Positions 19,490 through 41,190 of a stretch of 64,000 nt of DNA are shown here, in pieces. The notes beneath the pieces were generated by a model that was given only the letters and a program-made list of their open reading frames with translations, was not told the DNA's origin and ran no database searches. The position numbers and the translations under genes are program-made. Position 1 is the first letter of the stretch. Every line of letters starts with the position of its first letter. The DNA comes from Candidatus Colwellbacteria bacterium (GTDB lineage: Bacteria; Patescibacteriota; Minisyncoccia; UBA6257; Colwellbacteraceae), in assembly GCA_028710275.1 (NCBI GenBank), contig JAQTUL010000004.1:11646-75645 (forward strand), in the 5' to 3' direction.

Positions 19490-21379
19490 ATGCCTCCATC
19501 CCGTTCACGTGACGATGATGATGTAGTCGATAACTACTACGATCTGGACGATAAGGATTCTCGTACGGTCGGGATAAAGGAACTCGATCTAAATACTCTA
19601 TATCCACAGCATCCTCTCGACTATAAAAATGGAAGTAAATACTGTATTATCGGCAAGCCTGGTTGCCATAAGAGAGGTACAAAAATTATCTTGTTCAATG
19701 GTGAAACTAAAAATGTCGAAGATATTCAATTGGATGATGTGTTAATGGGAGATGATTCTACCCCTAGACATGTTTTAGGTCTTGCAAGAGGAAGAGAAGA
19801 AATGTACGATATTATCCCTACAAAAGGTGATAAATATACCGTAAATAAAAGTCATATTTTAACTTTAAAATCATCAGGATTTGCAAATCATCCCAAAGGT
19901 GAAGTGATAGATATTTCAGTCAATGAACTTCTTAATAAACAGCAGATATGGAGAACAAGATTCAAAGGATTTAAAGTATCGATTGAATTCGAAGAGAAAA
20001 AATTAGATATTCATCCTTATCTCATGGGATATTGGTTGGGAGATGGAACATCAAATAACGCTGAAATCACGACTGCAGATCACGAAATTGTTACGAATTT
20101 CGATTCGTTATTATATGAATATGGACTAAAATTAAGTAAGAGTGGATGTTCTCCGTACAGATATGGAATTACTCTTATTCATCAAAAAAATAGAAAGGGT
20201 AAAAACCAGTTTATGAACTGTTTGCGAGATAATAATCTTGTTAATAACAAACATATCACTCATCAGTATAAATGTAATAGTCGACAGAATAGGTTGGAAC
20301 TTCTTGCTGGATTGTTAGATTCGGATGGATCGTATAACGTGAAAAGTAAATGTTACGATTTTATACAAAAATCAGAGAAATTATTTGACGATGTTTTATT
20401 TTTAGCCAGATCACTAGGATTTGCTTGTTACAAACAACCATGTAAAAAATCATGTATGTATAAAGGAGAGAAACGAGAGGGTAATTATTTTAGATGTGTA
20501 ATAAGTGGAGACATAGACCAAATTCCATGTAGAGTAGAACGAAAAAAAGCATCCCCTCGTACACAAATAAAAGATGTTTTGGTTACAGGATTGAAAATGG
20601 TTTCTGTAGGAATTGATGATTATTATGGATTTGAACTAGACGGTAATAACAGATATCTTATGGAGGATTTTACAGTTACACACAACACCGGTAAATCAAC
20701 TATTATAAAATCTATTCTATACGCTAAAAAGCATATCTTTTCAGTAGGAGCATTTTGGTCTGGAACAGAGGATAGTAATGGGTTTTTCAAATCGTTTACA
20801 CCAACTACATTTATTAGAGATGGAATGATTGATGCGTCGAGTGCAGCATCACTTAAACCGTTAGAAGATCTCAATAAACGACAGAAGATCGCAAGAAAAT
20901 ATTTAGAACCCAGAGGAGATAATCCATGGTGTGTTGAGGTATTAGATGATTGTACTGCTGATCCTAAGTTCTTAAAGAAAACCGTTCTTAAGGATACTTA
21001 TAAAAATGGACGACACAAGGCTAAGATGCATCTTCTCTCGTTACAGTTCTGTCTTGATATTCCTACCGATACGAGAGGATTGATCGATGGTACATTTATT
21101 TGTCGAGAAGGTAACTCTAAGAATAGACTAAGATTATTTGAAAATTTTGGAAGTGGAGTCGACAATATTCACGATTGGAATGATCTTATGGATGGTCTCA
21201 CCGACGATTACTGTTGTATGTTTGTTAATAACAAGGCTACTACTAACAATATAGAGGATTGTATTCAATACTACAGAGCGGATCCTGATAAGATTCCTAA
21301 GGATTGGAAGTTCGGGTGTAAAGATTATTGGGACTTCCACTATGATAGATATAACCCTAACTTTGTCGAGACATTCTAA
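19490..21379 (+). CDS. A32-like virion DNA packaging ATPase containing an intein in the Walker A motif
   Basis: Exteins give 'CIIGKPG|TGKSTIIKSILY' (Walker A) and 'VLDDCTADP' (Walker B). They total about 290 aa, which is typical of A32. Confidence 0.8.
   Translation: MPPSRSRDDDDVVDNYYDLDDKDSRTVGIKELDLNTLYPQHPLDYKNGSKYCIIGKPGCHKRGTKIILFNGETKNVEDIQLDDVLMGDDSTPRHVLGLARGREEMYDIIPTKGDKYTVNKSHILTLKSSGFANHPKGEVIDISVNELLNKQQIWRTRFKGFKVSIEFEEKKLDIHPYLMGYWLGDGTSNNAEITTADHEIVTNFDSLLYEYGLKLSKSGCSPYRYGITLIHQKNRKGKNQFMNCLRDNNLVNNKHITHQYKCNSRQNRLELLAGLLDSDGSYNVKSKCYDFIQKSEKLFDDVLFLARSLGFACYKQPCKKSCMYKGEKREGNYFRCVISGDIDQIPCRVERKKASPRTQIKDVLVTGLKMVSVGIDDYYGFELDGNNRYLMEDFTVTHNTGKSTIIKSILYAKKHIFSVGAFWSGTEDSNGFFKSFTPTTFIRDGMIDASSAASLKPLEDLNKRQKIARKYLEPRGDNPWCVEVLDDCTADPKFLKKTVLKDTYKNGRHKAKMHLLSLQFCLDIPTDTRGLIDGTFICREGNSKNRLRLFENFGSGVDNIHDWNDLMDGLTDDYCCMFVNNKATTNNIEDCIQYYRADPDKIPKDWKFGCKDYWDFHYDRYNPNFVETF
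19664..20686 (+). mobile_element. intein (341 aa) with LAGLIDADG homing endonuclease, inserted in the packaging ATPase P-loop
   Basis: Starts 'CHKRGTKIILFNGE', carries LAGLIDADG blocks 'LMGYWLGDGTS' and 'LLAGLLDSDGS', and ends 'FTVTHN|T'. Confidence 0.75.
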
Positions 21380-30440: not shown

Positions 30441-33400
30441 TTAAGTCCTAGAAATGTGGTCTGTATCGCATGTTGCAGTATTTCCTGCACAACATAAGCG
30501 TGTGAAATTGGAAGTATAGGGTGTTGCAACGTTACATCCATTCGCCATCATTCCGAAACCCACGGTACAATAAGGAATAATCATCGATTGGTTATATTTT
30601 ATATTTGATGATGTAATAGAATTCATAATATAATCCTGATTATAGAATACCGATGTATCTGTTGTACATTTCAGAGAATCAGATGTACATTTTGTAGGAT
30701 CAGTAGTATTGTTACAACAGAATTGACGATATTTGCTTGAGTTAATCGGATTGGTTGAGCATTTATCCGTTATCAACTGTTGTCCCGTAGTACAATAATT
30801 TGTTACAGTATTGACATTAGATTTTACAGCATTGATAGTCATATTCGTCATGTTATAATCTGCCGATGAGAAATTAGAACCGTTTATGATACATCTCAAC
30901 GATGACGGATTGCATGTTGCAGTATTTCCGTTACAACATAATCTTGTGAAATTCGCAGTATAAGGAGAGATAGAATTGCACCCATTAGATATTAAATCAT
31001 ATCCGAGGTTACAATAATTAGTAACAACTGCTTGATTAGATACAACAGCTGAAGTAGTCATATTGGTCATGTTATAATCCTGATTCATAAATAGAGATGA
31101 ATTTAATGTGCAAGTAAGAGCACTCTCTGTACATTTTGTAGGATCACTTGTGTTGTTACAACAGAATTTATTAAACTGAGAGGAGTTGGTTGGTCTAGAC
31201 ATTTTACATCCATTGGTTATCAATCTCTGTCCTGCATGACAGTAATCAGCGATTGTACCGGTATTAGAGGAAATAGAATCGATTGTCATATTAGTCATGT
31301 TGTAATCCTGATTCGCAAATCTACTTGTATCTAGTGTACACTGAAGAGCTGTATCTGTACAGCTACTCGGACTTGTATCAGTGTTACAACATAAAGAGCG
31401 AAACTGTGAAGAATTTGTTGGATAACTTAATTTACATCCGTTGGATATTAGAGATTGCCCTGAATGGCAATAGTTAGAGACTGTTCCTGTGTTGGAAGAT
31501 ACAGCGGCTATTGTCATGTTAGACATATTGTAATCGGTATTGAGGAACGAAGACGTGTCAAGAGTACACTGAAGAGCGGTATCGGTACAGCTAGTCGTAT
31601 TAGTATCAGTGTTACAACACATTGTTCGATATTGATTGGAATTTATAGGAAATGTTTGTGCACATTTTTTATCTATAATTTGATGACCTAATGTACAATA
31701 ATCGGTTACAGTCTTAATATTTGCGGTTCCATCGATTGATGATATACTCATACCAGTCATACCATAATCCATAGATGAAAATGAACTTGAGTTTATAACA
31801 CAATCTATCGAATCAGAGTTGCACAGAGCGGGATCTGTACTTCCATTACAACAGAAGTTTCTAAACACATCCGAATTTATCGGATGTGTCTGATTACATC
31901 CTTTTGTCATGAGAGAGATTCCAATATCACACATATTTTTAACTGCTGTCACATTCGATGATATGGATTGAAGAGACATACCACTCATTCCGTAAACAAT
32001 ATTATCAAATTTACTTGAGTCTAGTAGACATCCAATTGAATCATCGTTACATTTTGAAGTATCTGTACGTCCGTTACAACAAAGTGATCGAAAATTTGGG
32101 GAATTGATCGGTTTAACTGTCTCGCATCCATCAACTATAATCTCTATTCCGTTCGTACAGTAATTAGAGATAGTTCCCGAGTTTGATAATGCTGAAGAAA
32201 CTGTCATAGAATTCATATTGTAGTCGTCATTCACAAATACACTTCCTTTGAGAGTGCACGCAAAGGAATCAGAATTACATTCTGAGGGGGTACTCGAATT
32301 ATTACAACAAAATTGTCTGAATTTCTCAGACTCAATTGGCGATAACTGTGTACAACCAGATGTCAATAGTGTTTCACCCATTTGACAATATTTAGAAATA
32401 TAGTCTACATTAGAACCTACAGACGAGAATTGCATATTCTGTAGACCCCAGTCCATATCAGAGAAATCGCTAGAATTAAATATACAATCTGTACCCTTAG
32501 TACAATCTTCAGGATTTGAGGAATTGTTACAACACAGTTGTTTGAATTTAGAAGAATCAGTAGGTGTAATCTGAGAGCACCCTTTTTCATGAAGAGAATT
32601 TCCCATATCACAATAAGACGTAATAGCTGGTTTGTTTGCTTTCACAGCTATAATCTCCATATTCTGCATACCATAATCGTTTGTACTGAATGCACTACTA
32701 TCGATCGCACATTCAATCTTGTCACTAGAACAACCTGTTTTAGAGTTATTACAACACAGAGATACAAATGTTTCAGAATTCGTAGGATCATATACTTTAC
32801 AACTATTCTCTTGAAGTTTATATCCGAGACTACAATACTGAAAAATTTTATCTTTGTTAGAAACCCATGATGAGATCGCCATATCCTTCATATTATAATC
32901 TTCGATGAGAAATGATGACGTATCAAATGTACACTGAAGAGAATTAGGGCCGCATCCCGTAGAACTGTTATTACAACATAACTCCAGGAATTTATCATCA
33001 GATACAGGAGACTTCATAGTACATCCTCTATCCATAATAGACTGTCCGGATTCACAGAATACCTTAACAGCCTCAGAATTACTACCAACAGACTGAAGAG
33101 AGAGATTTTGAAAGTTATAGAGTTTATTGGAATAGTCACTGGAATCTATAGCGCATTCGATAGAACTCTGACTACATTTTTGAGGATCGCTGGAGTTATT
33201 ACAACAGTATTTTCTAAAGGCCGGAGACTTCATGGGTGAATACTCATCATCTACACATCCATTAGAGAGAATAGAATTTCCAACACTACAGAATGTCATC
33301 ACAGCTGCTTCATTCGCTGTCAGTGAAGAATCGTTAAAATTCTCAAAAGAATTCTTCATATCACTAAAACGGGATTTATCCAATATACATTGCGATCCTT

Positions 33401-33914
33401 TTGTTCCACAAGTAGTTGGATCTCCATTACAACAGAACGAAAGATATGTTTTATCTTTTGTAGGATCGAATACATCGTTCACACACCCACCATCTCTAAA
33501 TTTCTGACCGAGATTACAGAAATTATTTAGGACATTGGTATTTCCCTGTGACGAATTGATACTAGGAATACTCATATTATCTATACTTGATGCTAAATTA
33601 TTATACACTGTTGCAATAAGACTGCATGAAAAATTATTTATTGACCCTTTATAACTTGAAGGTATATGCGAGCCATCCGACCCCGAAGGAGATATGGGTT
33701 CATCACCGATAGGTGAGACAATAGACTTAATAACGGGAAATGTATCACTACCAGACGCCATTTTTAGATACGGGGTAAAAAAGAGAGATGCCCATCTAGG
33801 TATCGGTTTCCCTTCTTCATTTATCTTCTTAACATACACGATCGCAGAGATCGTGTAGATCGCGAGAACAGCGGATATTACGGCAAATACAACGAATGCC
33901 ATTATAAAGAACAA
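30441..33914 (-). CDS. giant secreted/membrane-anchored Cys-rich tandem-repeat glycoprotein (candidate virion fibre/surface protein)
   Basis: N-terminal TM/signal followed by about 15 tandem repeats of about 75 aa. Each repeat has 6 Cys ('YC..G..LI.NGC....P.NS..F..LCCN...T...C....L.C..D.S.F.N.DYNMTNMT') and is packed with N-x-S/T sequons. Confidence 0.7.
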   Translation of the reverse strand: MFFIMAFVVFAVISAVLAIYTISAIVYVKKINEEGKPIPRWASLFFTPYLKMASGSDTFPVIKSIVSPIGDEPISPSGSDGSHIPSSYKGSINNFSCSLIATVYNNLASSIDNMSIPSINSSQGNTNVLNNFCNLGQKFRDGGCVNDVFDPTKDKTYLSFCCNGDPTTCGTKGSQCILDKSRFSDMKNSFENFNDSSLTANEAAVMTFCSVGNSILSNGCVDDEYSPMKSPAFRKYCCNNSSDPQKCSQSSIECAIDSSDYSNKLYNFQNLSLQSVGSNSEAVKVFCESGQSIMDRGCTMKSPVSDDKFLELCCNNSSTGCGPNSLQCTFDTSSFLIEDYNMKDMAISSWVSNKDKIFQYCSLGYKLQENSCKVYDPTNSETFVSLCCNNSKTGCSSDKIECAIDSSAFSTNDYGMQNMEIIAVKANKPAITSYCDMGNSLHEKGCSQITPTDSSKFKQLCCNNSSNPEDCTKGTDCIFNSSDFSDMDWGLQNMQFSSVGSNVDYISKYCQMGETLLTSGCTQLSPIESEKFRQFCCNNSSTPSECNSDSFACTLKGSVFVNDDYNMNSMTVSSALSNSGTISNYCTNGIEIIVDGCETVKPINSPNFRSLCCNGRTDTSKCNDDSIGCLLDSSKFDNIVYGMSGMSLQSISSNVTAVKNMCDIGISLMTKGCNQTHPINSDVFRNFCCNGSTDPALCNSDSIDCVINSSSFSSMDYGMTGMSISSIDGTANIKTVTDYCTLGHQIIDKKCAQTFPINSNQYRTMCCNTDTNTTSCTDTALQCTLDTSSFLNTDYNMSNMTIAAVSSNTGTVSNYCHSGQSLISNGCKLSYPTNSSQFRSLCCNTDTSPSSCTDTALQCTLDTSRFANQDYNMTNMTIDSISSNTGTIADYCHAGQRLITNGCKMSRPTNSSQFNKFCCNNTSDPTKCTESALTCTLNSSLFMNQDYNMTNMTTSAVVSNQAVVTNYCNLGYDLISNGCNSISPYTANFTRLCCNGNTATCNPSSLRCIINGSNFSSADYNMTNMTINAVKSNVNTVTNYCTTGQQLITDKCSTNPINSSKYRQFCCNNTTDPTKCTSDSLKCTTDTSVFYNQDYIMNSITSSNIKYNQSMIIPYCTVGFGMMANGCNVATPYTSNFTRLCCAGNTATCDTDHISRT
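30600..33200 (-). repeat. in-gene tandem repeat array (about 225-nt units, about 15 copies)
   Basis: Periodic recurrence of the CCNN/DYNMTNMT-encoding units through the ORF. Confidence 0.7.
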
Positions 33915-35497: not shown

Positions 35498-36220
35498 ATG
35501 TCTACAGCGATGAAAAAGAGATCAGTGGCTAGTAAAGCTGATGTTCAGATATTTAAGAACGGAAAAAATCTTGTTTTATACCCTATATTTTTAGAATGTA
35601 GTAAATACACAACAGATGAGTTCTGGAAGAATATGTTTGAGTTTATGAGCTACGGAAAGTGTCCCAGTTGCATCTATATATCAAATAATACGATATACTC
35701 GTCGAATAAAAAGAAATCGTTCTCTTTTATTATACCGTCTGAAAAGCCTGCTGGTGAAGTATTCTCCGAATTAAAAGATCTCTTGATGAAGAATACATCT
35801 CTATGTTCTGTTGCAGACACCAAAGCAAAGAGAGAGACGATCAGAACAAAAGTCAACAAAGATGAGATTACGGATGAAACTACATGGACTGAGATTCGTA
35901 AGAAAAATCTGAAGGAGATTTTCATCATCAAATTCGTTATCCGAATGAAATCTAAACATAAACTCACGTGGGATGCTGCAAGAGAACTCTATAGTATTAT
36001 TCAGGTCGGACTTCTGACTAAAACACAAACATCAAAGGATGTGAATTTCTCATCAAAGAGGATACAGAGTATAGATGGAATAGAGTATGACGGGGAGAGT
36101 CGGTTTATCAATGAGTACGTAGACAATGATGTCCCGAAAGAGAATGACGATTCGGATGAAAATAACTATTTGTACTACTACTGGGATAAATACGTATCTC
36201 ATGCAGCAAAACTCGCGTAA
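35498..36220 (+). CDS. hypothetical protein
   Basis: 240-aa ORF. Confidence 0.45.
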   Translation: MSTAMKKRSVASKADVQIFKNGKNLVLYPIFLECSKYTTDEFWKNMFEFMSYGKCPSCIYISNNTIYSSNKKKSFSFIIPSEKPAGEVFSELKDLLMKNTSLCSVADTKAKRETIRTKVNKDEITDETTWTEIRKKNLKEIFIIKFVIRMKSKHKLTWDAARELYSIIQVGLLTKTQTSKDVNFSSKRIQSIDGIEYDGESRFINEYVDNDVPKENDDSDENNYLYYYWDKYVSHAAKLA

Positions 36221-36240: not shown

Positions 36241-39200
36241 ATGACCAGGAAAACTGATTTCCTCTATAAGAAGAAGCAAAATATCACACCTGTTCTTGTC
36301 TTCTCGCCAAGAATGTCTAAAGCTATCATTATCGAGTACGATTCGGAAGAGGAGATCCAGACACCGGATGAGAATTCGGATGTGGAAATTCTGGAGGAGG
36401 GAGAAGAGATCTTCGATGAGGATCAGGAGGAGACTAAGGAATCGGAACGGATTCCGGAAATGAAATCCCTGAAAATCTCCGGAGAAAAGAAGAGGAAACT
36501 TACGGAGGAGGAGATGTACGAGATTACGGACTTTCTTCAAGTTGATCCTGATAAAGACTGGGAAACATCGATGGCAGTTATGGATGAGAATCGAAACGAT
36601 CTCTTTGAGCAGTTGAAGAATATCGAGATCTATCCGAGTCAGATTCCTAAACTGAAGATGGGAATCAAAAACGATTATGAAACATCAAAGATTGAACCGG
36701 GTACCGCAATCGGGTGTGATAGTTCTCTCGCGATTGGTGAGCCGACGACACAAATGTCGCAGCCAAAGACGACTAAGGTCGTCTTGCGACAGGGTAACAA
36801 AACAATCAATACAACGATGGGGGAGTTCATCGACTCGGAGATTGAGAAGGCGTGGATGATCGTATCAGAGGACAATGGATCAGAGATTGTTCCAGACGGC
36901 GTATTCAAAGTGACAGAGATCATGACTGTTTCTAAAGACGAAAAGGTAAGTTGGAATAAGATTACCGAACTCTCTCGACACCCTGTGAATGGAGATCTTG
37001 TGAGAATCAAGACTGATAGCGGGCGAGAGACCGTTTGTACTCTCTCACATTCACTTCTCACTCGAAACCTTAATGGTGTGGTTCCTATTCTTGGAAGTGA
37101 TATTCAAGTTGGTCATCGAGTACCGGTGTTCTTTCGAACACCCGAAGTAGATAATCCTATCTCAGAGATCGAGTTGTGGAAAGATACTACGGTTGATCTC
37201 ACATCATCGTTCGGTGAGTTTATCGGAATCTACATCGCGGAGGGAAGTACTTGTAAGAGTAGTAATTCTGTTGTCGTTACCACTAATCAGGAATACTATA
37301 AAAATGTATCATACGAATTCTTTTCAGAAATGGGAAAAAACGCTAAAACAAGAGAAAAACCTCTTCATAAAATTCAGGGAAGTAAAAAGGAATATAAAAG
37401 CACGGATCACATAATCTCTCACAAGCTTCTGTCACAATGGCTTCGAACGAATATCGGTACCTACTCTCACAACAAGGAGATTCCTGGATTTATCTATGGA
37501 TGTAAGAGAGAGTTCATCGCGGGTGTTCTTCGTGGAATGTTTGATGGTGATGGTAACTTTCATGGATCGAGAAAAAGTATCAAGTATCACACAACATCGA
37601 GTGAACTCATCCAACAAGTTGCATTCCTTCTCTCGTATTTCGGTATCTTCTCAACATATCAGATCGAGAAGGAGGCTTGTGATGAACACAGAGCGTTGTG
37701 GGTTCTGTTGATCTTCGGACCCAAGTTCGGAAAGATTTTCTCCGAACAGATCGGAACTAACAACGAGAAGAATAAAAGAGAGCTTGATTCATACATCAAT
37801 GATAAGGATGGAAGAAATTTCATTGATCAGGTTCCCAACTGCGCTGAACTTGTTAGTAAGATTGGTAGAGGACTGAAACTTCCCGGCGCATCAAGAAACT
37901 ATGGTCGATGGGTGAAAAAGGAGTCTGAAGGATCTTGTATCGGTAAGAATACTCTGATCGAGTATGTGAAGCTTTTCACCGAAAAGAATGAAGAGAAAGA
38001 TGCAGGGTTCGAAGATGATATCTCTCTGCTTCAACAGGCGATCGACGCTGATGTGATCTGGGATAGAGTTGTTGAGGTTGAGATTATCAAGGCTGACCCT
38101 GACGAGAAGGTGTATGATTTCTCAGTAGCAATCAATGAAACTTTCGCTACTCAATCGGGTATCTTAGTACACAACACCTTGAATTCAATCGATTACAAAG
38201 AGCATATCGTGGTCAAAAACGGTACATCTGTAACATGCCCAAAGATTGGCGACTTTGTGGATAAAATAGTCATTGATAATAAGAAAGATGTCAAGGTTTA
38301 TGATGAGGTTACCGAATACGTAGACATCAATTTCATGAACCTGGAGACACCATGTGTCGATGAAAATGGAAAAATGCATTGGAAAAAAATAGAAGCTGTC
38401 ACCAGACATCCACCTCCGGGAGGTAATAAACTTTTGGAGGTGAAAACTCAAACGGGACGTCGAACAACTGCAACAAAAGCTAAATCTTTTTTGCTGCGAA
38501 GAGATAACAAAGTGGTCGGGGTAAATGGATCCGAATTGACAGTTGGAGATAGACTTCCGGTCACTGTTAAGTTTCCGAGACCTCTTGAAAATGACCGATT
38601 GAAAACCATCAATCTAAGTAGATATCTCAGTAAAGAGAAATTCGTATTTGGAACTGATCTCTGGAAAGCAAGAGAGATTAAGGAGAGATACAATAAAGGT
38701 GGAAGAAAAGAATGGAAAGACGAAATTAGAGAGGAATATACATATGGAGGAAGAAATACCAGATGGTGGTCTGATAATTTCGGAATCGATTTCACTCTCC
38801 CGTATCATAGATGTGATGCAGCAATGGATGCGCTCGAAGGAAAGAAGAAGGAGTATATCGGAAATGAGATTATCAAGAAAGGAATGGTGTACACAACAAG
38901 ACGATCTGTTGGAGAAGTGAATGAAATCCCAGAAGAGTTTGAACTGGATAACGATTTCGGATTTGTTGTTGGTGCTTACATTGCTGAGGGACATTGTGCA
39001 AATACCGGAACACAATGTATCATCAGTAACAATGATGAAAAGTTTCGAAAGAGAATTGAGACGTGGTGTGATAAACATAAACTCGGATATCATGTTCAGG
39101 TACAACACGATAAGAATTTTAAGGGAGCAACCAGTACAGATCTCCGAATTCACTCAACGCTAATGGTTGAATGGTTTACCAACATGTGTGGTAACTATTC

Positions 39201-41190: not shown

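Follow-up and report, generated by a model that had tools for sequence, protein, structure and literature searches.

How can a virus make a working RNA polymerase from a gene that encodes only the C-terminal part of the largest subunit and is interrupted by two inteins three residues apart, the second of which lacks the textbook residues at its C-terminal splice junction? This question is raised by an open reading frame (ORF) at 36241..41190 (+) of the window, by which we mean the whole 64-kb stretch of DNA analysed here. The ORF has 1649 codons plus a stop and is read here as the gene for the precursor of a C-terminal fragment of the largest subunit (RPB1) of a viral RNA polymerase. We here argue, with a probability of roughly 0.8 for the explanation as a whole, that it is a split C-fragment gene, that its two inteins are spliced out of the precursor, and that the second of them, intein 2, belongs to a conserved family with an alternative active site.

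The Pfam matches in the ORF are far beyond chance. RNA_pol_Rpb1_5 (4.6e-39) bears out an initial annotation, made without database searches, that had taken the 1649-aa product for the C-terminal part of RPB1; Rpb1_7 matches weakly, and Intein_splicing (8.9e-30) and LAGLIDADG_3 (3.9e-30) each match two stretches. The deposited product, MDD4930893.1, is named 'LAGLIDADG family homing endonuclease [Candidatus Colwellbacteria bacterium]' and lies on an 83,885-bp contig of a metagenome-assembled genome (MAG). The contig is that of a giant virus (Nucleocytoviricota), mis-binned as a Colwellbacteria MAG, because the window encodes HSP70, an eRF1-domain protein, PARP with WWE, RING fingers, glycosyltransferases and a helicase, and because all related loci found by a scan of IMG/VR are on giant-virus contigs; the polymerase gene is mis-annotated. 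An independent Logan assembly of run SRR22315508 (8-kb contig) yields a 1649-aa product identical to that of the window, and a sequencing or assembly slip at the intein 2 junction is therefore unlikely. The initial annotation had left room for a corrected sequence with a His-Asn end in intein 2; in the second assembly the Ala-Asp end stays.

Removal of both inteins (aa 173-645 and 649-1194) gives GEPTTQMTLNTFHLAGV, the same as in the intein-free homologue P0006 and in RPB1 structures. Intein 1 (473 aa; 36757..38175, +; SQPK...ILVHN), identified by Pfam and by the restored host motif, sits at TQM|TLN (site a). It is followed by a spacer of three extein codons, ACC TTG AAT (Thr-Leu-Asn; 38176..38184, +), which correspond to T1080-L1081-N1082 of yeast. 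Intein 2 (546 aa; 38185..39822, +; SIDY...GLALAD) sits at TLN|TFH (site b) and is delimited by Pfam, family conservation, AlphaFold2 and Foldseek. In yeast Rpb1 numbering, by an ungapped HMMER match to 1i3q_A, intein 1 interrupts M1079|T1080 and intein 2 N1082|T1083. This TQM/TLN/TFH region, which immediately precedes His1085 of RNA polymerase II, is taken to be the N-terminal arm of the trigger loop. The trigger loop of RNA polymerase II must fold as one mobile element. With insertions in the arm before His1085 the unspliced protein should therefore be inactive, a view that the initial annotation had also taken, and both inteins would have to excise by protein splicing to leave ..GEPTTQMTLNTFHLAGV...

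Intein 1 has the features of class 1: Ser1, Thr+1, the block B His (TLSH, 37039-37050, +), block F VYDF with Asp at F:4, and a His-Asn end, the canonical VHN that the initial annotation had recognised. Its two LAGLIDADG motifs are ..GIYIAEG and ..MFDGDG (37210-37248 and 37513-37557, +). Orthologues at site a occur alone in P0001 (80% identical), P0002, P0004 and P0008, and the other site-a inteins all end in VHN (7/7). The ratio of nonsynonymous to synonymous divergence (dN/dS) against P0001 is ~0.06, a rough value given that dS is saturated. To judge by these motifs intein 1 is a standard Ser1/His-Asn/Thr+1 intein, the HINT fold of which is supported by sequence only. Both inteins carry an NX motif in the sense of Pasch et al. 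2023, an Arg-His pair in SRH for intein 1 (36976-36981, +) and in TRH for intein 2 (38404-38409, +), the latter ~25 residues before block B.

Intein 2 combines Ser1, Thr+1, a HINT fold, the block F Asp (VYDLTVADTRNF, 39757-39792, +; VYDL, F:4 Asp) and restoration of the host motif upon removal with three departures from class 1. Block B should read Thr-x-x-His but is T-K-A-K, with Lys in the His position (38473-38484, +), and the final codons of ..GLALAD (39802-39822, +) are GCC GAC (Ala-Asp), so that the penultimate His and the C-terminal Asn are both replaced. The last two had been noticed in the initial annotation, which overlooked the Lys in place of the block-B His. Both LAGLIDADG motifs, ..GAYIAEG and ..YFSGDG (38956-38994 and 39247-39291, +), are intact, each has an acidic residue, and the domain has two-fold pseudo-symmetry; endonuclease activity is predicted. 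A shifted registration (TLNS|FH) was considered and rejected, as it places Ile at position 1 and Phe at +1, neither a nucleophile; no other registration puts nucleophiles at both positions. Homology between the two inteins is evident (29-34% identity, E 2e-16), and the block-B His of intein 1 aligns to the Lys of intein 2.

The departures are shared by a whole family. A search with intein 2 brought in many more site-b inteins. Proteins with both junctions number 40, and distinct sequences, counting that of the window, 39; their hosts are 27-74% identical to the window's extein. Ser is first and Asp last in 40/40, followed at +1 by Thr (38) or Ser (2). Among the 39 distinct sequences, Ser1 and the G:7 Asp are invariant, as are the NX His (preceded by R in 36 and by K in 3), Thr or Ser at B:7 and Asp at F:4; B:10 is Lys in 37/39. 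G:6 is variable and never His, and F:13, usually His, is Arg or Lys in 34/39, an assignment that follows our own alignment. The AlphaFold2 model of intein 2 has a mean predicted local distance difference test (pLDDT) of 87.2 and a predicted template modelling score (pTM) of 0.87, and its best Foldseek match is PI-PkoII (2cw7; E 6.8e-30, template modelling score ~0.7), with further matches to TliVMA and I-DmoI. In the comparison with PI-PkoII and the TFIIB intein (5o9i), Lys100 aligns with their block-B His and His75 with their R-H. Against P0003, dN of intein 2 is 0.22 with dS saturated (ratio ~0.10), and dN is much lower than dS in intein 2 and in each of the exteins, a pattern that indicates purifying selection on intein 2. 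We conclude that intein 2, though atypical, is not degenerate: its junction is what is usual in a conserved family of non-canonical and probably functional inteins.

Inteins with atypical C-terminal residues were reportedly described by Amitai and colleagues in 2004. Asp, Gln and Glu at the C-terminus can cyclise in step 3 of splicing, and the penultimate His is often lost (PMC4031507). By analogy, the Ala-Asp end is a tolerated variant known elsewhere, and the missing His-Asn pair is no argument against splicing. No residue is otherwise as conserved among inteins as His B:10, and as of 2014 two inteins were known without it, a functional one that uses a Lys and a degraded pseudogene (PMC4031507). 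In inteins that begin with Ser, the NX His is preceded by Arg or Lys and is essential, and the PolB16 intein can do without its block-B His (PMC10189870). Atypical C-terminal residues are also reported for inteins common to Anaeramoeba and Nucleocytoviricota (PMC10710043).

The active site of intein 2 would thus comprise Ser1 and Thr+1, the [R/K]-His of NX, the block-B Lys, Arg or Lys at F:13, a non-His penultimate residue and a terminal Asp. Its route is most likely the normal class 1 pathway, in which the NX His, perhaps together with Lys100, would activate the N-terminal junction at Ser1, and cyclisation of Asp546 would replace that of Asn in step 3 and release the intein. The initial annotation had named an unusual Asp-dependent C-terminal cleavage as one way out; the data favour it, as a variant already described, although the splicing chemistry itself is something that we infer.

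The alternative that survives best is that Asp-ending inteins leave the trigger loop interrupted for good, either by cleavage that is not followed by ligation or by simply remaining in the protein. The review of such termini does allow that 'other mechanisms are possible' for Asp, Gln and Glu (PMC4031507), and splicing of the Asp-ending family is a prediction from sequence. However, the ligation nucleophiles are kept (Ser1 in 39/39, Thr or Ser at +1 in 40/40), and as they are needed only if the exteins are joined, they count against this alternative. The insertion also lies three residues before the catalytic His of the trigger loop, where a 546-aa insert is unlikely to be tolerated. We regard a failure to ligate as improbable.

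Still less probable, and in our judgement very unlikely, is that intein 2 is unable to splice and that the locus is a decaying pseudogene, the degeneration that the initial annotation had suspected. Three catalytic positions are indeed non-canonical together (B:10 Lys, G:6 Ala and G:7 Asp), and one of the two inteins known in 2014 to lack His B:10 was a degraded pseudogene (PMC4031507). Yet the frame is uninterrupted over all 1649 codons in DNA of ~40% G+C, both LAGLIDADG motifs are intact and the model of the whole intein is confident. The same three positions are substituted in 37-39 of 39 distinct inteins, in hosts with only 27-74% identity to that of the window, and the low dN relative to dS in intein 2 and both exteins speaks for selection. 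An Asp end in every one of the 40 site-b proteins, within an active-site pattern conserved in its own right, does not fit a junction in decay. Ligation of the trigger loop by a functional, Asp-ending intein 2 remains our reading.

Inteins of the same family also occupy a second site in the subunit. Three proteins of other giant viruses (P0182, P0185 and P0190) have Asp-ending inteins with Lys in block B at the bridge helix of RPB1, inserted at DTAxK|SVTGDT...xD|TAE(T/S)G. A further protein, P0204 (750 aa, on a 4.6-Mb contig), is an unsplit RPB1 in which the start of a site-b intein breaks off into unrelated sequence; this may reflect viral endogenisation or a copy that has decayed within a eukaryotic genome.

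A wider proposal, to which we give about even odds, is that the site-b and bridge-helix inteins form a widespread cysteine-free class that splices without the block-B His, the penultimate His and the terminal Asn, and that can be stacked 9 bp apart. In place of these textbook residues, such a class would rely on the NX His, on basic residues and on cyclisation of Asp.

Where, then, is the rest of RPB1 encoded? The ORF itself begins later than its first ATG suggests. P0001, the closest homologue, P0002 and P0003 all begin MSK... at the position of Met25, and because the closest homologues start there, translation probably starts at Met25 (nt 36313, MSKAIIIEYDSEE) and the 24 codons from 36241 are probably not translated. 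This start and a variable acidic leader occupy 36313..36489 (+); the leader takes up the first ~60 residues after Met25 and varies in length and sequence across the family (alignment A1). The conserved N-extein follows at 36490..36756 (+), from KRKLTEEE to GEPTTQM. In alignment A1, and when mapped to 1i3q_A and archaeal Rpo1C/A'', it ends within the first half of the trigger loop and corresponds to yeast Rpb1 ~991-1079. The full N-extein, aa 1-172, ends in ..GEPTTQM, so the initial annotation was right to count ~170 aa before this motif (which it gave as GEPATQM), but only the last ~85 residues (from KRKLT, nt 36490) are conserved polymerase sequence. It was also right that an unrelated gene, without a Pfam match, lies directly upstream, but wrong, in all probability, to start the protein at the ATG right after that gene.

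The C-extein (455 aa; 39823..41187, +) runs from Thr+1 of TFHLAGV and is supported by Pfam (Rpb1_5 and Rpb1_7), by RPB1 and A''/Rpo1C chains in PDB and by alignment A1. It contains the remainder of the trigger loop, parts of the jaw and cleft, a Lys/Asp/Glu-rich insertion and a conserved ..EYEDF tail, and is 88% identical to that of P0001. In PDB the extein matches RPB1 over residues ~1049-1490 and A''/Rpo1C chains over most of their length. By Pfam, it has Rpb1 domain 5 with the trigger-loop motif and lacks domains 1-4, as does an A''/Rpo1C-like protein. The Lys/Asp/Glu-rich low-complexity insertion (~40400-40520, +; KKKSGKRGKKDDDEKKKKKKKKGEEDDDEDEQ) varies in length and sequence among relatives and is not in archaeal A''. 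An acidic-aromatic tail (EYEDF, EYIDF, EYIVF or ..DF; 41173-41187 in the window) closes many stand-alone C-fragments, and archaeal A'' is without it.

Such C-fragments are common. A search with the spliced extein returned dozens of proteins of 450-600 aa in which Rpb1_5 is the sole polymerase Pfam domain, several of them on contigs of 100-300 kb. In alignment A1 they have a variable leader followed by a K-R-K-L-T block ~80 residues before the trigger loop, and archaeal A'' proteins start at the same columns; by HMMER mapping, the N-terminus of archaeal Rpo1C/A'' is within ~10-12 residues of the KRKLT block. The corresponding loci in IMG/VR come from an alignment-based scan (a single-protein scan gave one locus only). 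Stand-alone C-fragment ORFs without an N-terminal half within 10 kb were found in 21/81 loci, and an N-terminal half was present within the locus in 56/85, mostly contiguous with the C part and hence unsplit; L022 is a split case among these.

N-fragments form a family of their own. A scan of IMG/VR DNA for the catalytic NADFDGDEMN motif provided examples (no contigs with split C-fragments among the matches listed) in which ORFs of ~900-1020 aa reach their stop codon ~35 residues beyond the YG(D/E)xG that follows the bridge helix. A profile search extended the family to at least 120 proteins of roughly 900-1060 aa, with domains Rpb1_1 to Rpb1_5. The one N-fragment tested aligns with archaeal A' (880 aa) to residue 864, ~16 short of the A' C-terminus. 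Many N-fragment genes (P0212, P0217, P0226, P0294 and others) encode 1200-1400 aa with Hom_end_hint domains, that is, they bear inteins; inteins are frequent in both halves of the split polymerase.

The split occurs among relatives in both adjacent and distant arrangements. In locus L022 (5799-11272), the N- and C-fragment genes are on the same strand, ~1.4 kb apart, with an unrelated ORF between them; read by eye, this ORF has a P-loop-like N-terminus. The N-fragment P0209 is encoded on a JGI contig of 161,868 bp from metagenome 3300046168, at ~51.6-54.3 kb, and the stand-alone C-fragment L024 lies at ~140 kb of an IMG/VR contig with the same metagenome id and length, so that the two genes appear to be on one contig, ~85 kb apart on opposite strands. 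In the lineage of the window's virus the largest subunit would likewise be made from two separate genes, with ORF 36241-41190 as the C-fragment gene. The split point would be close to the archaeal Rpo1N/Rpo1C (A'/A'') cut, in the region of the eukaryotic foot insertion, and the N- and C-polypeptides would presumably assemble non-covalently.

The initial annotation had also placed the N-terminal part elsewhere, either in a separate gene or behind an intron or other splicing; the two fragment families support the former and not the latter. The idea that the parts are joined at the RNA level has a model in the Marseilleviridae, where RPB1 (Noumeavirus NMV_011) consists of adjacent ORFs with a group I intron between them and is joined by RNA self-splicing (PMC5413956), and trans-splicing could be imagined as well. 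For the window we find either form scarcely credible. With N-terminal parts of RPB1 as queries, tblastn found nothing else in the 64-kb window, that is, within 36 kb upstream and 23 kb downstream, and there was no Rfam match at the gathering threshold anywhere in the window, group I introns included, nor any ARAGORN hit. The gene directly upstream (35498-36220; 240 aa, no Pfam match) is separated by 20 nt from the ORF's first ATG and, like a 455-aa glycosyltransferase gene on the minus strand, is kept in synteny (as an ORF of ~240 aa) in P0001 and P0003, whose exteins are 88% and 74% identical to that of the window. We also considered this ORF as a part of RPB1 and ruled it out, as it has neither a Pfam match nor a tblastn match to RPB1. 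Every member of the C-fragment family opens with Met followed by a leader that varies, the N-fragments terminate at genuine stop codons, and in one relative the two genes are apparently ~85 kb apart on opposite strands. Two separately encoded subunits remain the better explanation.

The third part of the question is how two inteins came to lie so close together. Intein 1 ends and intein 2 begins 9 bp (three residues) apart, which the initial annotation had called unusual and which indeed is so next to the published spacings of neighbouring inteins that we found, 85 aa in T. kodakarensis Pol and 48 aa in P. abyssi CDC21. Intein a occurs alone in P0001, P0002, P0004 and P0008, intein b alone in P0003, P0007 and P0012, and neither in P0005, P0006, P0009 and P0011; among the homologues returned, only the window's allele has both. 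Intein identities track extein identities. On one side of an occupied allele, only 9 bp of the target of the other endonuclease remain, and, judging from the usual size of LAGLIDADG targets, the two homing sites must overlap. With a spacing of 9 bp, homing from a single-intein donor should therefore co-convert the flank and remove the resident intein. As close relatives have both single alleles in circulation, the most likely origin of the double allele is that a second intein invaded an allele which already held one; repair primed from the 9-bp microhomology may have produced it. In Haloferax MCM, double-intein alleles arise from single-intein alleles (PMC10643990). That the allele is instead an assembly chimera of intein-a and intein-b strains is very unlikely: both single alleles do exist in related viruses and the source is a metagenome bin, but all that the two have in common between the inteins is the 9-bp ACCTTGAAT, probably too short for the usual k-mer graph, and the NCBI MAG and Logan assemblies yield the identical 1649-aa product.

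Several points weigh against our explanation. The function of the site-b inteins is deduced from their conservation, and the saturation of dS makes the dN/dS values rough. The missing half of RPB1 was found as a gene family in relatives and not for the window's own genome: the window covers 64 kb of the 83.9-kb contig, a profile search of genome contigs with the N-fragment alignment gave, among the matches listed, mainly archaeal A' genes, and none of the at least 120 N-fragments listed by the profile search is labelled with the window's MAG. The identity of the JGI and IMG/VR contigs that carry P0209 and L024 follows from a shared metagenome id and identical length, not from sequence overlap. 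The homologue searches omitted the window's own protein, P0121, a cluster representative; they were thus non-exhaustive, and absences are weak evidence. Finally, at a spacing of 9 bp, ordinary homing would not account for the double allele.

Two further ORFs of the window deserve mention. A 629-aa ORF at 19490-21379 (+) holds a third intein with a canonical Cys1...THN|Thr+1 and a LAGLIDADG/Hom_end domain, inserted in a P-loop (IIGKPG|C...HN|TGKST); its host is probably the packaging ATPase. At 30441-33914 (-), a 1157-aa ORF without a Pfam match has a hydrophobic N-terminal segment and many Cys-rich repeats of ~60 aa (..CCNN..C..C..).

The site-b family, with at least 39 distinct members, sits in a catalytic loop of an enzyme that is essential, is maintained by selection and has neither the block-B His nor the His-Asn end, which is strong natural evidence for an alternative active site. 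Such a site would contain no cysteine and might be of use in protein engineering. Two related homing inteins at a distance of 9 bp pose the question of how a second element invades when its target overlaps a resident one. It appears that the polymerase of many giant viruses contains a subunit split in archaeal style, and split polymerase genes are easily mis-annotated, as with the window's gene, a bacterial homing endonuclease in a Colwellbacteria bin by its label. Where a marker-gene phylogeny or a completeness check assumes a single RPB1 gene, half of the subunit could go unnoticed.

Polymerase subunits encoded in two parts, inteins that end in Asp and genes with more than one intein all have precedents. 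In the literature searched we found no description of split RPB1 in giant viruses and no detailed description of Asp-ending RPB1 inteins. As far as that literature shows, an archaeal-type cut point in a large giant-virus clade is apparently new, as are a whole family in which a block-B Lys goes together with a terminal Asp and a penultimate residue other than His, and the spacing of three residues between inteins. That the archaeal-type cut was inherited rather than convergent is a second reading, to which we give less weight than to the proposed cysteine-free class.

Known systems resemble each part of the locus and differ from it in specific ways. Inteins with an atypical C-terminal Asp or Gln, such as that of CIV RNR, likewise have Asn replaced by a residue that can cyclise and are otherwise presumed to follow class 1 (PMC4031507), but the site-b family is also without the block-B His and the penultimate His, and resides in a giant-virus RNA polymerase. 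The Ser1 NX inteins, including PolB16 OarG, share Ser1, Thr+1 and the [R/K]-His before block B with intein 2 and all 38 of its relatives; all those examined keep the block-B His, whereas site-b inteins have Lys in 37/39 and end in Asp, not Asn (PMC10189870). The Tko CDC21-1 intein is functional without the block-B His and uses a Lys to activate the N-terminal junction, but this Lys58 is outside the conserved motifs (PMC4031507), whereas the site-b Lys is at B:10 itself and may have a similar role. PI-PkoII/PI-TkoII (2cw7) and the TFIIB mini-inteins (5o9i, 5o9j), all archaeal, are the best matches to both inteins, in sequence and, for intein 2, in fold; their R-H matches NX and the full-length one has a LAGLIDADG domain, but in the alignment they have the canonical block-B His and are only ~19-28% identical in sequence. 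Inteins also occur in the homologous C-terminal RNA polymerase subunit, as in archaeal Mja and Nph rPol A''.

As for the double allele, Haloferax MCM-a/-d, Tko Pol and P. abyssi CDC21 also have two independently mobile inteins in one conserved gene, with single alleles common, but at nothing like the three residues (9 bp) seen in the window. Marseilleviridae RPB1 is another giant-virus RPB1 that appears as separate N-terminal and C-terminal ORFs; the window, in contrast, has neither an adjacent N-terminal ORF nor an intron signal, and its gene is not of the group I type. The closest parallel to the split is archaeal Rpo1N/Rpo1C (A'/A''), in which the largest subunit is also encoded by two genes and is divided after the bridge helix and before the trigger loop. 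In archaea, A' and A'' lie side by side within an operon. The genes of the viruses, unlike these, are not adjacent in the window or in most relatives, being >10 kb apart and in one case apparently ~85 kb, and the viral C-fragment has in addition an acidic leader and a C-terminal EYxDF tail.

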